Part shown: piece after piece, positions 14,554 to 22,058 of the stretch | Layout: each line of letters opens with the position of its first letter | Position numbering within the stretch: the first letter of the stretch is position 1 | Source of the DNA: Octopus vulgaris | Lineage: Eukaryota | Direction of reading: 5' to 3' | Length of the DNA: 64,000 bases | Assembly (NCBI GenBank): GCA_951406725.2 | Contig: OX597820.1 | Coordinates: 49,166,001 to 49,230,000 of the forward strand | Program-made: the position numbers and the translations under genes | Notes under the pieces: model-generated | Told to the model about the DNA's origin: nothing | The model's database searches: none | What the model saw: the letters and a program-made list of their open reading frames with translations, nothing else

Positions 14554-14744
14554 GATAGATAGATAGATAGACATATAGACAGATAGATAGATACATAGAT
14601 GGATAGATATATAGATACAAACATAGAAACATATATATATGTATATATATATATATATAACTTAGAATAACTTAGAAAGGTTTTGGCCAGTATTGGCCCA
14701 GGCCATGTCTAACTTAATAGCACCACCTGGCGAAGTCTTTCAGT

Positions 14745-17700
14745 TCAGGATGTGGGCACCAAGGCCCATTCGAGCAGAGAGTTATTGTTTGCGGAGACAT
14801 ATCCGGGTGTGGGTGGTTTGTCCGGTACTGTTTGAAGGAATTTGTCCAAAGACTTCTTGAATTTTGTGTGGTCAGTTTCTTTTTTGACGTGCCCTGGTGT
14901 AATGTTGAAGAGAGCAGGTCCAATTGAGGTGAAATAGTTGTGCCGTATTGTCGTTATGTGATGCGATTTAGATTTTTGTTGTGGACGGATGGCACGTGGT
15001 CCAAGCTTTGGATGCATTTTGAAGGTGATGCCAACATCATTCGGACAGTGCTGGTGGAATATTTTCCACATCATACTGATAATGTAGCGTTCACGGCGTC
15101 GTTGGAGTGAATACAATTTCAGCTTCTCTAGTCTACCCCAGTAGTCAAGGTCTGACATGCCATCTATCTTTTTTGTGATTGACCTTTGGGGAGCTTCAAT
15201 TCTCATAATATTTTGTTTTGTGTAGGGAGACCACAGTGGACAGCAGTATTCAAGGTGGGGTCGGGCAAAAGTGGAGAAGAGAAGGATAATAGCGTGGGAA
15301 TCTCTCGACTGGAAGGCTCTGAGAATCCAGGAACACATTCTGCGGGCCATGTCAACTTTGCTGCTTATATGTGTAGCCCAGCTTATGTTGTTGTCCACTG
15401 TTACTCCCAGGTCTCTGATGTTGTTGGATGCCATGAGAATTTCTCCAGAAGGAAGAGAGTATGGGAGTTTCAGAGCGTCCTCCCTTCCAAAGTGGATCAG
15501 TTCAAATTTGTCTTCATTTAGCAACATGTTATTCTTTTCCGCCCATTGGACAACAGCCAGTAGGTCTGACTGAAGGTTTATTCGGTCATCCACGCCATTG
15601 ATGACCTTCTGGAGCTTGGAATCATCAGCGAAGGTTCTGATGTTACTGTGTTTGATGGTGTCAGTAATATCATTTATGTAGATGATGAAGAGAAGTGGGC
15701 CCAACACAGTGCCTTGTGGGACACCACTGCTGACTTTGGCTGGGCTGGATTTGACTCCTTCGACTACAACATGTTGGGTTCTGTTAGACAGGAAGCACTT
15801 GATCCACTGCAGTAGCTTTCCAGTGACACCAATATTTGACAGCTTTCTCAGAAGGATCTTATGATCAACCCTGTCAAAGGCCTTGCTGAAATCAAGGTAG
15901 ATGACATCAGTGTTGGAACCTTCTCCCAAGGCTCTCAAAATGTCATCAAAATGATGCAGTAGCTGCGTCAGGCAATCTCTCCCATTACGGAATCCATGCT
16001 GGTTGGGGTTCAGCATATTATGACTCTCAAGGAAGTGAGTCATACGCGATCTCAGCACCCTCTCAAATACCTTGAGGATATGAGAGGTGAGTGAGATTGG
16101 ACGGTAATTCACGGCAAGCGATTTGTTTCCTTTTTTGAAAACTGGGACAACAGACTGGGATAGAAGGTCTTCTGGTATATATCCAGCATCCAGTGAGTTC
16201 CGCCACAGATTGGCTAGAGGGGGTGCAAGTTGGTTTTGACACATCTTCAAGACACAAGCAGGGAACCTATCGGGACCTACTGCTGAATTATGCTTCATTT
16301 CCTTTATTGCTGCTAAGATATCAGGAGCGCCAAATGTTATGTCCGATAAAGTGTATTGGGGAGTAACATCACTGATACAGCCCAGATCAGTCATATCAGG
16401 ATTGCTGAAAACAGAGCAATATTGTTTCTGCAATATCTCTCCCATAGTTTTGGCATTGTCTTGAAGAGTACCATTTTCATCAATCAGAGGGCCAACAGTA
16501 GAACCAGTGACTCTGTGTCTTTTTGCAAATGAAAAGAACACTTTGGGATTGAGTTTGATCTTCTCAATGGCCCAGGCCTCTTCAGCTCTTCGCTGACTAT
16601 TGATGATAGACATCATGTTGTTTTGGAGTTTATGTTTTTTAATCTCTAGCGACGAGATGGCAGTCAGGTTGGTGTGTTGCTGTTGACAGTATTTCAGCAT
16701 GTTGATCTTTTTGTTGATTCTTTTAATTTTCCTTATGAGAGATTTTCTATTTCTAGGGATTCGACACTTAGATTTGTTTGCAGATCTTAATGGGGTGTGC
16801 CTTGCACATATGTTCGTGATGGTGTCTACAAGTGACTGCCAGGACTTTTTGATGTTAGTGGGTGTGTATGTGTGCGTGAAGGACCAATCGACTTGTGCAA
16901 GATCATTATTGATCGCTTCCCAGTTTGCATTGTGGAAATCCATAGTGTCAAATGGATGAACAGGAGGGTTGACATTTGTTTTGCATTTTGGCCAGTGAAA
17001 TCTCAGATCACAGAGAACCATGTCATGGTCGGAGAGTAGGGTTTTCTCCACTGCAATATTGTGGATAGTATCAGTGTGATTGCTGAAAATTAAGTCTAAG
17101 ACGTTTTTGTGACATCTCGTTGGTTCGAGTACCAGTTGGGACAAGAAGAAGTCATCCATGAAGTCAAGAAGCGATTCCACTGCCTCCCTGTCAGGGGTTG
17201 AGAGAGAAGAACCTGGCGGCAGACTGTTTGTAGACCAGTCAACCCCGGGAAGGTTGAAGTCTCCCATCGTTAAAATGTTGTCAGGTTGACACTGCTGAAT
17301 GAAACACTTTATGCTGTTCAGGCGTTCCTTGAAGCATGGTAGGGGCGTTTGGGGTGGTCTGTAGAGCCCAACTACTGTTAAGTTGTTGGTTTGACTGAAT
17401 ACAGAGACTGCTTCGCAGTATCCATTGGAAAATATGTTCATGGCTTCTGTTGAGAATGAATCATGGACATAAATGGCAGTCCCACCCTTTCTTCTGCCAG
17501 CACGATCAGCACGAATGGTTTTGAAATGTTTAACTTTCACCTCGGCTTCCAAGTGGAGGTCACTAAGATGGGTTTCAGTGAGGACGAAGAAAGGGATGTG
17601 GTTTGGATGGGCCTCGACCCAGTCCTCCAGGAATCTTATCTTCCATTTTTGTGTATTGGTGGAAGGGCTGATGCCTTGGGCATTAAGCAGAAATGTTGAG

Positions 17701-17762
17701 GCGAGAGTGGATCGTTTTAATTGTTTTGGTGATTTGTTTATTTGATTGCTTTTTAATGGCAT
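14745..17762 (-). CDS. LINE ORF2: APE endonuclease plus reverse transcriptase, 1005 aa, uninterrupted
   Basis: APE motifs LLNAQG, LTETHL, GLYRPP, MGDFN, LDLIF, SDH; RT motifs NYRPISLTS, QHGFR, YLDFSKAFD, GVPQGTVLGPLLF, FADD; CR1/L2-like C-terminus RPHLEYCCPLWSPY...LYSLQRRRER. Confidence 0.97.
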   Translation of the reverse strand: MPLKSNQINKSPKQLKRSTLASTFLLNAQGISPSTNTQKWKIRFLEDWVEAHPNHIPFFVLTETHLSDLHLEAEVKVKHFKTIRADRAGRRKGGTAIYVHDSFSTEAMNIFSNGYCEAVSVFSQTNNLTVVGLYRPPQTPLPCFKERLNSIKCFIQQCQPDNILTMGDFNLPGVDWSTNSLPPGSSLSTPDREAVESLLDFMDDFFLSQLVLEPTRCHKNVLDLIFSNHTDTIHNIAVEKTLLSDHDMVLCDLRFHWPKCKTNVNPPVHPFDTMDFHNANWEAINNDLAQVDWSFTHTYTPTNIKKSWQSLVDTITNICARHTPLRSANKSKCRIPRNRKSLIRKIKRINKKINMLKYCQQQHTNLTAISSLEIKKHKLQNNMMSIINSQRRAEEAWAIEKIKLNPKVFFSFAKRHRVTGSTVGPLIDENGTLQDNAKTMGEILQKQYCSVFSNPDMTDLGCISDVTPQYTLSDITFGAPDILAAIKEMKHNSAVGPDRFPACVLKMCQNQLAPPLANLWRNSLDAGYIPEDLLSQSVVPVFKKGNKSLAVNYRPISLTSHILKVFERVLRSRMTHFLESHNMLNPNQHGFRNGRDCLTQLLHHFDDILRALGEGSNTDVIYLDFSKAFDRVDHKILLRKLSNIGVTGKLLQWIKCFLSNRTQHVVVEGVKSSPAKVSSGVPQGTVLGPLLFIIYINDITDTIKHSNIRTFADDSKLQKVINGVDDRINLQSDLLAVVQWAEKNNMLLNEDKFELIHFGREDALKLPYSLPSGEILMASNNIRDLGVTVDNNISWATHISSKVDMARRMCSWILRAFQSRDSHAIILLFSTFARPHLEYCCPLWSPYTKQNIMRIEAPQRSITKKIDGMSDLDYWGRLEKLKLYSLQRRRERYIISMMWKIFHQHCPNDVGITFKMHPKLGPRAIRPQQKSKSHHITTIRHNYFTSIGPALFNITPGHVKKETDHTKFKKSLDKFLQTVPDKPPTPGYVSANNNSLLEWALVPTS

Positions 17763-18994
17763 GTGCAGTGGGGTAATAGTGGTGGATGGTGGTGGGTGAT
17801 AGCTCGGATGTTTTTTTCCAGTTCTTTTGTTAGATTCATTATAGCTAAAAAAGAGGAAGAGGAGGTGGTTTCCTGTCTAGGGAACCGCAGGTAACTGTGG
17901 CCGCGGCTATTTTTATGTGAGTGGTTATCTTTAAATGTCCGACGAGTCCCCGGGAGATGGGTAAAGGGGCAATCCCTGTGCAAACACAATCTGTCTCGCT
18001 GGGAATAGCGGCAGATTTGGGGATTCCTTGTTTGAGATATTGGTGGTTGTGGTGGTGTTGTATTATGGTGGTTGCTGTTGTAGTTTGTGGGGATAGAGCG
18101 TTTTGTTCCAGGTAAATGGGTGAATTTGCAGTCTCTATCAGTTCACAGTCTATGGCGAAGAGAATATCGGCAAATGATGGGGTTTCGAGTGGGTGTGTAG
18201 GTGCGTGTGTGTGTGTGAGTTGTGAAAGGTGTAGATGATAGTTTGTTGAAGTTTTGGCGACCTTTGTGACCTGTAGGAGGTAAATTCCTTGAGATAGCAT
18301 TAGTAGTAGTAGTTGTAGTAGTAGTAGTAGGTAGAAGAGATGTTGACAGTGGTAATGATTGAGGAGGTCGATTCCAAGACAAAGATGTTTGTCGATACAT
18401 AGTGGGAGTAGTACTAGTAGTAGTAAGCAGAGGAGATGGTGTTGACAATGATGATGATTGAGCTGCTGGGGCAGTGAAAGGAAGGGGTGGTGCTTCCTGC
18501 TGTGTGACCCTGAAGACTGGGGGGTCAATCCTTTCGTTTAGCAAATCGGCCATTGTAGATGAATCAAGGAGTGGTTCATCCTGTTGTTGTTGCCGCTGAG
18601 TTTGTTGTTGAGGTTGTTGTTGTTGTTGCCGCTGAGGTTGTTGCTGCTGAAGTTGTTGTTGTTGCTGTAGCTGTTGTTGTTGTTGTTGCCGCTGAGTTTG
18701 TTGTTGTTGAGGTTGTTGTTGTTGTTGTTGCGCCGGTGATGCGTTCGAAGAGAAAACACATCTCAGTTTATCGAAGTGTTTATTTATTAATTTAAAAGCA
18801 ACTTCGATTTGTTTTAATTTATTTTGTATCTGCTGTTCAGATCGAGTTTGCAAGTGGTGAACTGTTCGTTTAGCAATTTCGTTCAGACACGAAGCACCTA
18901 TGCTCTCTGTTTCGGTAAGGCCATGCCATGTGTTGATAAGAACGTCGACTTCATTATCAGACCAGTTTTTGTTGGATTTTTGGTGGCTAGCCAT
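17753..18994 (-). CDS. LINE ORF1 (413 codons, one in-frame TGA at 18143-18145): Myb/SANT-like N-terminus, polyQ, S/T/P-rich linker, two CCCH zinc fingers
   Basis: Track ORFs 18143-18994 and 17753-17989 are in the same frame; reading through gives ICRYSLRHRL*TDRDCKFTHLPGT and ICRYSQRDRLCLHRDCPFTHLPGT; stop overlaps the ORF2 ATG. Confidence 0.85.
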
Positions 18995-19459
18995 TCTGGT
19001 TGATATGTTTTATTAAATTTTATTTTGTTCGTTTGTTTTGTTGATTACTTTTAATTATTATTTTTTTATTTTTTTAAGGAGAAGTATGTAGAATTGATTG
19101 TACAGAATGTTTGCTGTAATACTGAGAAGTTTGTATTTGAATTATGAGCTTGTAGTTATTTTATCTTTCTTTTCTTTTCTTTTTTTCCCTCTTTTTCTAA
19201 TTTTTAATGTGTGGGTGATCCTTTAGTTATCAGAAGGTGTTTGAGAATATTTGGTCGTTTGAAAATTATGAAAATAGTTTGTGGTTAAGGAAAAGTCTAC
19301 TCACGAGTTGGGAAAAAGCGTGGTTTCAAATATACAGGAATATATGTGATGGTCAATTACGACGAATGTAGCTGTGAAGCTTGCTGCTGACCGGCGCAGA
19401 GAGGAGTAAAAACACGTATATATATATATACTTTATTTAAAAGCAGCAGAAAATTCAAC

Positions 19460-19920: not shown

Positions 19921-20548
<628 letters not shown>

Positions 20549-21751: not shown

Positions 21752-22058
21752 GGCGTATATCTCAGGGATTAGACTCACAATCATGAGGTAGTAAGTTCAC
21801 TTGTGTTGCGTTGTGTTCTTCATTTCTCGTTGCACCAGTTCACTTATGTATAGAAATGAGTTGCGTCGTCACTGGTGCCGAGCTGCATCGGCGTTTGCCT
21901 TTCCCTTGGATAACATGGATGGTGTAGAGAGCGGACGTTGTATGCAGGGATGACTTACTAGCCTTCCATAACCAACCTTGCCCGGACGTTTTCATCGGAA
22001 GGGAAGTTTCTGCGGGCAATTCCATGGTTATTCACAACTGAAGGGATTCTTTACCCTT
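21752..22058 (+). mobile_element. SINE family C
   Basis: Shares GTCACTGGTGCC...GCCTTTCCCTTGGATAACAT core with 34571-34910 and 38000-38309. Confidence 0.8.

Follow-up and report, generated by a model that had tools for sequence, protein, structure and literature searches.

The minus strand of this stretch of Octopus vulgaris DNA (contig OX597820.1, 64,000 nucleotides, called the window below and examined within the 2.8-Gb genome assembly) carries a long interspersed nuclear element (LINE) of CR1 type whose first open reading frame (ORF1) begins with what looks like a Myb/SANT DNA-binding domain. The locus raises the question of what such a head does in an ORF1 and how the second frame, ORF2, is translated behind it, and it bears on two general matters, namely the mode of LINE ORF2 translation and the role of the varied heads of LINE ORF1s. 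We find a variant of the CR1-type ORF1 that is real, family-wide and under selection, and that is new as far as the literature searched shows. To the joint reading, that a Myb-headed CR1-type ORF1 arose by domain swap and is fused to ORF2 by slippage at a U UUU UUA heptamer, we assign a probability of roughly 60%. The element and its ORF1 are laid out as follows.

14660..19417, minus strand: near full-length CR1-type LINE of family A, to which 20 other copies align at 94-98% identity
17753..18994, minus strand: ORF1, 413 codons plus TAA, broken in the window copy by a TGA at codon 284
18749..18973, minus strand: Myb/SANT-like (trihelix-class) domain, residues ~8-82, by Pfam PF13837 (E 8.8e-5), AF2 and hhalign
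18581..18730, minus strand: polyglutamine (polyQ) tract, residues 89-138, with 40 Q of 50 residues, 32 of them as CAA
18173..18580, minus strand: serine/threonine/proline (S/T/P)-rich linker, 49% S+T+P
18104..18172, minus strand: CCCH finger 1 (CX8CX4CX3H-LPGT), residues 275-297, second Cys lost to the TGA at 18145-18143
17945..18013, minus strand: CCCH finger 2, residues 328-350, intact
17789..17854, minus strand: conserved stretch near the C-terminus of ORF1 (S-F-L-A-I-M-N-L...), which is predicted to form an amphipathic helix and overlaps the ORF2 frame

This order of parts had been proposed in a first-pass annotation made from the letters alone, and it was recovered when the minus strand was read from 18994 to 17753: the Myb/SANT-like N-terminus, the polyQ tract of about 50 residues, the S/T/P linker and two CX8CX4CX3H-LPGT repeats are all in place, as are WSDNEVDVLINTW, EIAKR and RSEQQIQNKLKQI, while the plus strand across the region is full of stops. 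The middle region of ORF1 is low-complexity, and its polyQ tract is a length-variable CAA repeat that spans 29-62 residues among 29 copies, family C having a far shorter one. Both this tract and the S/T/P linker probably arose from microsatellites and serve as flexible spacers; that polyQ-driven condensates are a selected function seems doubtful.

The 413-residue read-through protein assumed in the same annotation did not hold up. The second Cys codon of finger 1 is TGC in 29 of 30 copies and TGA only in the window copy, and the Cys allele was also found in contigs of two public runs; the TGA is a private nonsense mutation, because of which the window copy is unable to make the full ORF1 protein or a fusion. 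Read-through or selenocysteine recoding at this codon was considered and rejected on the same 29 of 30 copies. Among the 29 other family A copies, 16 retain a whole ORF1 with two fingers and the remainder are frameshifted or truncated, and therefore the architecture belongs to the family and the window copy is a damaged member of it. Family A itself is a young and very common LINE in the genome, with 141 candidates for its 5' part and 1628 for its 3' end, of which 40 each were scored and proved 95-100% identical. The intact architecture is also present in family B (729 candidates in a search of the same genome, 150 of them scored; ORF1 52% identical) and, with four fingers, in family C (ORF2 ~61% identical), and the Myb head is therewith carried by three related families.

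We are highly confident that the architecture is real and that its head has a Myb-class fold. As the annotation had read it, the N-terminus behaves as a trihelix-class Myb/SANT-like domain. The Pfam model Myb_DNA-bind_4 (PF13837) matched 8 of 8 aligned ORF1s of families A-C (best E 7.6e-7); as whole proteins, one family C member scored 28.9 bits, over the curated cut-off, and B (25.3 bits) and a second C (23.9 bits) fell under it, while many B and C domain stretches exceeded it in the genome scan (27-43 bits). Nine positions are kept in an alignment of 14 domains (W11, E15, I20, W23, I40, S52, Q55, I56, K61). The AF2 model built on the alignment has helices at residues 13-29, 35-48 and 53-83 (pLDDT 79.8), i.e. 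a three-helix helix-turn-helix (HTH) arrangement with a long third helix, in agreement with the fold that had been expected of it, and its top structural neighbours are HTH DNA-binding domains of the SANT, Myb, GT-1, Zeste and homeodomain types (DNAJC2 SANT, Z 6.3 and root-mean-square deviation 2.8 over 70; GT-1, Z 6.0). An hhalign comparison of the LINE head profile with seven host-type Myb/SANT domains of the genome gave 96.7%, a value that is not fully independent since the seven were picked by the same Pfam model. The third helix is basic (7 K/R, 3 D/E), and the head is predicted to bind double-stranded DNA. Comparison of families A and B gave pN 0.27 and a saturated pS of 0.77 for the Myb domain, indicating purifying selection.

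Several observations weigh against the Myb assignment. The anticipated match to a Pfam Myb family stood in part: the window head did match PF13837 at E 8.8e-5, but its 23.3 bits lie under the curated cut-off of 27 bits. All fold matches are above E 0.001 and below Z 8 (best Z 6.7), with homeodomains tying with Myb/SANT; the usual Trp of helix 3 is replaced by Leu; and a profile search of solved structures found no Myb, only coiled-coil noise. Searches for homologues of the Myb part outside this genome returned 7 candidates, none at E 0.01, and none at E 1 among 7994 longer candidates; with animal proteins sparse in these collections, the negative is a weak one.

Both fingers of families A and B match the last finger of the array of three to four fingers found in families C and D, and the simplest reading of the A/B history would be that three fingers were lost and the last one doubled. 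Between A and B the fingers show a dN/dS of 0.07 over 60 codons, against 0.21 for the linker, whose alignment is unsure. The fingers are predicted to bind RNA, the Pfam matches behind this being weak (E 0.0053 for family A). When the four-finger array of family C was used as query, 1627 representatives were retrieved from a library of 1.84 billion proteins. Among the best 150 of these, 102 have at least 150 residues before the array, and a PHD-like motif precedes the array in 90 of the 102 by a loose pattern and in 52 by a strict one (0/5100 in shuffles), the others having half a PHD motif (4) or none (8, several of them truncated). In 60 of these proteins Pfam placed PHD in 9 (E 0.003) and Myb in none, and the Myb profile matched none of the best 150 of 1627 (best E 0.048). 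Cluster look-ups for the relatives gave only the name 'hypothetical protein', and a stored relative in Atlas points to two unnamed clusters at 0.86 and 0.85.

The PHD-headed proteins and family D, which in this genome carries a PHD-type ORF1 upstream of a CR1-type ORF2 39% identical to that of the window, share with the Myb-headed ORF1s a terminal CX8CX4CX3HxxGT finger followed by F-L and a helix; the C-C-C-H spacing is kept in A, B, C, D and 123/150 relatives. They differ in that their head consists of a helical domain plus a PHD-like finger, not Myb, and in the number of fingers, which is three or four; families A and B retain the last finger alone, in duplicate, an arrangement of two such fingers seen in 5/150 of the PHD and CCCH-array relatives. 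The finger array and C-terminal helix being common to PHD-headed ORF1s, the ORF1 of families A-C is therefore chimeric, as had been suspected. The clade of A, B and C excludes D with support 100 in a FastTree tree that carries long-branch warnings, and it is likely, judging from these sequences, that Myb replaced a PHD-like domain by swap in the A-C ancestor. It is through family D alone that the 150 outside proteins can be placed in a LINE, because two metagenome scans, one for loci of PHD-type ORF1 and one for loci of an outside ORF2, gave no confirmed locus.

In a survey of 448 CR1/L2 elements, ORF1s were sorted into types I-V with PHD, RRM, CCHC, Tnp22, esterase and zf/lz only, and ORF1 shuffling between lineages was described (Metcalfe and Casane 2014, PMC4120745, as far as its available text goes). 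The annotation's statement that the present combination is undescribed agrees with this catalogue, from which it is absent; in the available text Myb, SANT, MADF, CCCH and frameshift have 0 mentions, and supplement 1 holds no octopus, Aplysia or Lottia rows. Our literature searches turned up no description of a LINE ORF1 of the Myb or CCCH type. Pfam families RRM, CCHC, Tnp22, PHD and esterase were absent from the two ORF1 pieces of the window (E up to 10), unlike in ORF1 types I-IV, and from eight ORF1s (E up to 1), a very divergent RRM being possible. Judged by the same available text, the element resembles CR1/L2 elements, especially those with PHD-bearing ORF1s of types III and V, in being a two-ORF element with apurinic-type endonuclease (APE) together with a reverse transcriptase (RT) and in having a modular chromatin- or DNA-reading head, and it shares ORF1 shuffling with them, here in L039, L043, L050 and a relic in family D.

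Shuffling is visible in individual copies. In L039 and L043 an A-type 5' half with its ORF1 sits on a C-type ORF2, the junction point being identical in the two, and L050 carries a B-type 5' ORF1 on an A-type body. Five D copies (L174, L175, L176, L179, L185) retain in their 5' untranslated region (UTR) a decayed, AUG-less Myb N-terminus of A/B type that lacks helix 3, with 44-53% identity over ~40 residues and a partial duplicate, lying ~740 nt upstream of the D ORF1 in L174-L176; by its sequence it is a captured 5' end.

The second half of the question concerns the junction between the two frames.

17846..17852, minus strand: U UUU UUA heptamer in the ORF1 phase, predicted -1 ribosomal frameshift site by phase and uniqueness
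14745..17876, minus strand: ORF2 frame, open for 1043 codons, in -1 relative to ORF1

The heptamer (T) TTT TTA encodes the S-F-L that opens the last helix of ORF1. It lies in the zero-frame phase X XXY YYZ, with ORF2 in -1 and open across it: the -1 frame opens 9-30 nt upstream of the heptamer and runs without a stop through 40-70 codons as far as the endonuclease. This is the tandem-slippage pattern of the HIV-1 gag-pol heptamer. Among copies in which the start of the endonuclease was found, a few of which carry later indels that shift the phase, the heptamer precedes the endonuclease in 27/28 copies of A, 19/20 of B, 13/16 of C (one with a longer run) and 12/13 of D. Families A, B, C1 and D each have one TTTTTTA in their coding span (~4.2 kb in every case), as has C2 in its 2.4-kb span, and this sole occurrence is always at the ORF1-ORF2 junction. 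From codon usage, the chance of this spelling of S-F-L is 0.003-0.014 per family. Of 126 tails from the outside relatives, 110 have F-L after the last finger (24.5 expected), and K, E, Q, M or W stands before it in 2/110 compared with 29/123 for F-L elsewhere (p 3e-7); none of these five residues has a codon with U in last place. Counted from the heptamer, the first Met of ORF2 stands at residue 198 in B and 140 in D, beyond the catalytic Glu that its motif predicts at residue 96 in B and 106 in D, and therefore AUG initiation would yield a dead nuclease. We consider it probable, on this pattern of phase and codons, that a -1 ribosomal frameshift fuses ORF1 to ORF2.

Under the preferred reading, most ribosomes would complete the ORF1 protein, which would use its fingers to coat the element RNA and perhaps its last helix to oligomerise. 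A smaller share would shift by -1 at U UUU UUA and yield a protein of ~1410 residues without the last ORF1 helix, in which the Myb head and CCCH fingers would stand on one chain with endonuclease and RT. At the weakest step, the basic third helix of the head would bind double-stranded DNA and so anchor the fusion to sites that are AT-rich or (TA)n; there the endonuclease would nick and a tail ending in TA would prime reverse transcription. Such a fusion would help to explain why copies land mostly in TA repeats; ORF1 heads would then ride on the endonuclease, which would give a direct reason for the presence of PHD, Myb and similar readers in ORF1s.

Precedents exist for both halves of this scheme. 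The Dictyostelium elements TRE5-A and TRE3-A are APE-type LINEs that need a -1 frameshift for ORF2, and the TRE5-A ORF1 protein binds TFIIIB and has been implicated in targeting (PMC5911963, available part); the likeness to the present element lies in the APE-type layout with a -1 frameshift, here predicted, whereas they belong to the L1 clade and reach tRNA gene flanks through TFIIIB contact, and Myb or CCCH goes unmentioned in that part of the source. R2 and other elements with a restriction-like endonuclease (RLE) and with zinc fingers plus Myb have a Myb DNA-binding domain on one chain with RT and nuclease, as predicted here, and differ in their single ORF, C-terminal RLE and ribosomal DNA targets (PMC13708176, available part). 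The word frameshift is absent from the available text of PMC13343379, PMC4120745 and PMC10294476, and our literature searches were not aimed at it. A broader view, that the element belongs to a CR1 lineage widespread among invertebrates, whose ORF1 type (reader head, CCCH array and helix) is not in the catalogue, whose Gag-Pol-like fusion is made at an HIV-type slippery site and whose head is a swappable targeting module on the endonuclease, and that in this genome a captured Myb re-aimed the element at (TA)n microsatellites and created an R2-like design in an APE LINE, is put forward tentatively and is rather unlikely as a whole.

The insertion sites bear on whether the head aims the element. 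A flank was scored as TA when its 16 bases were alternating purine-pyrimidine and TA-rich, which holds for 6% of window positions as background. Near full-length copies have TA 3' flanks in 17/21 cases for A, 22/22 for B, 13/22 for C and 4/14 for D. In sets chosen by the 3' end alone the values were 21/28 for A and 7/29 for D (p 0.0002), with one A and one D locus lacking a readable tail, the window copy excluded and three D loci overlapping the earlier set. Truncated 5' ends have TA flanks in 11/18 A and 5/22 D copies (p 0.02), and the 5' junctions of family A lie at TA repeats in 24/32 cases after removal of the family's own terminal motif. As the tail cannot create truncated 5' flanks, A therefore inserts into existing TA repeats, and does so more than the equally young D. 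Very young B copies (L141 and others) were seen in very long (TA)n tracts, exceeding 500 nt at one 5' flank, which suggests growth of the tract at or after insertion.

The strongest competitor, to which we give nearly even odds, accepts the fusion and attributes TA targeting to the endonuclease and to pairing of the tail, with Myb otherwise employed, e.g. in chromatin or nuclear retention, in protein contact or at the element's own promoter. In A, B and C the tail finishes with ...AAGT(T)A and TA follows directly, and many flanks of D, whose tail is (GAAAT)n, begin with TAT. Family C bears Myb and yet has a weaker TA bias (13/22; C versus D, p 0.10), and D, without an intact Myb, is above background (24% versus 6%). 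Both the endonuclease (39% identity) and the tail also set families A-C apart from D, because of which the contrast amounts to one lineage versus one. In SART1 and TRAS1 the target site is set mainly by the endonuclease, and endonuclease swaps alter it (PMC7265360, available part). What this account leaves aside is that both contrasts of A with D, at the 3' and the 5' side, follow the prediction of Myb targeting, that helix 3 is basic, and that R2-type elements recognise their targets with Myb domains (PMC13708176, available part). That Myb contributes to TA targeting is possible, on balance not what we expect, and is confounded with the differences in endonuclease and tail. Four coexisting young families provide a natural swap experiment, with a common finger array and slippery site, a PHD or a Myb head, and differing target bias; they suggest why LINEs and TA microsatellites may be associated in cephalopod-like genomes, and retrotransposon engineering might draw from them a candidate module for targeting.

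Less well does the idea survive that ORF2 is made separately, by reinitiation at an overlapping AUG (families A and C) or at a codon other than AUG (families B and D), with F-L kept for the sake of the helix and no fusion formed; we regard it as unlikely. In its favour, an in-frame AUG lies ahead of the endonuclease in A and C, 28 and 23 residues after the heptamer, and that of A, at 17762, overlaps the end of ORF1, 7 nt ahead of its stop. Among simple local folds, no conserved stimulatory RNA structure was found after the heptamer in A, C and D (z -1.3 to +1.2), and B alone has a hairpin there (z -2.8), without the 5-9 nt spacer expected of a stimulator; the zero-frame helix after F-L is moreover conserved in the relatives. 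The AUGs and the lack of a common hairpin count against a frameshift. Protein selection, however, leaves unexplained the fixed codons (a T-ending Ser, TTT and the rare TTA) across ORF2s that are 39-78% identical, and neither the avoidance of K, E, Q, M and W before F-L in 108/110 relatives nor the opening of the -1 frame over 40-70 codons is expected from it.

Very unlikely is a third possibility, in which the U run causes slippage during transcription, or in which a few copies with one T more and a fused ORF act as masters. The length of the T run does vary among A and B copies, with six T in 27/29 A and 34/45 B copies and 3-8 in the other B copies, and several copies carry fused frames of 1400 residues, but exactly six T in most young copies is unexpected if fused copies were the masters, and a run of six U with A next to it, exactly in the phase X XXY YYZ, is what tandem slippage calls for. 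Finally, it is highly improbable that the head is a generic three-helix or coiled-coil module and its Myb label a weak-match artefact, which would suit the sub-threshold Pfam score of family A and a single-sequence model (pLDDT 66.6) that matched coiled coils only, given that 8/8 members match PF13837 with relatives over the cut-off, that hhalign gave 96.7% and that the alignment-based model ranks HTH DNA-binding folds first.

The remaining features of the element are these.

18995..19417, minus strand: 5' UTR, with an AAGACGT terminal motif common to families A, C and D
17025..17642, minus strand: apurinic-type endonuclease domain (Pfam PF03372, E 4.8e-9; PF14529, E 2.4e-13)
15399..16130, minus strand: reverse transcriptase domain (Pfam PF00078, E 8.4e-31)
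14685..14698, minus strand: 3' UTR hairpin with a 5-bp stem and a 4-nt loop (3' UTR fold z -2.43)
14660..14679, minus strand: tail, a 10-nt unit present twice (TTCTAAGTTA-like), with a (TA)n tract after it, from the alignment of copies
19417..19430, no strand: (TA)n tract at the 5' junction, which with the tract at ~14632-14659 forms the interrupted target

The element is 4.76 kb long; several of the 20 aligned family A copies run from 19417 through to the tail, and the window copy is ~24 nt short of the 5' end of the family. Endonuclease and RT lie within a single intact ORF, and the 3' end has a hairpin followed by a short tandem repeat, without poly(A). Both traits are used to define CR1, whose avian 3' repeat unit is ATTCTRTG (PMC8665684, available part), and the 10-nt tail unit of family A resembles that unit. 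By its ORF layout and 3' end the element is a CR1-type LINE, the trees holding only unnamed rows. Zenon elements, defined by the lack of an ORF1 and by a poly(A) tail (PMC13343379, available part), were excluded as an identity, as the window element has an ORF1 and a tandem-repeat tail. For the fold of the 3' UTR, 5/200 shuffles were equal or better. About 35 nt before the hairpin (window 14700-14735) are near-identical in the 3' UTRs of A, B and C, whose ORF2s differ by up to 40%, and this stretch is likely, from its conservation, to be an RT recognition element.

Some further observations concern relatives of the head and the fingers. Of the seven host-type Myb/SANT domains, L103 and L104 match the LINE profile best, with 27.3 and 24.6 bits, while the rest reach at most 17.5. 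They lie with L195 (G000:C26:2.39-2.42 Mb) in a tandem pair of host genes whose first exon is Myb/SANT-like; one of the pair has later exons with a coiled coil, and we take both to be trihelix-like, Harbinger-accessory-like host genes. As in the LINE, the domain begins a few residues after Met; this intron-containing two-copy gene differs by its C-terminal coiled coil and is too distant to be named as the donor. An open frame near these genes (L197:4383-4958, plus strand) presumably encodes, as judged by eye, an adaptor with death-effector and death domains. A subfamily of C (L127-L132, L186, L191) has an extra half finger (C-x7-C only) upstream of the four-finger array. P0033, P0053, P0056 and about a dozen other PHD-type relatives start with a hydrophobic leader ending in G-[VI]-E-x-N-P-G-P, which resembles a 2A ribosome-skip sequence. 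Upstream of the element, SINE-like dispersed repeats (after short interspersed nuclear elements) are found between microsatellites at window positions 19970-20370 and 21790-22030.

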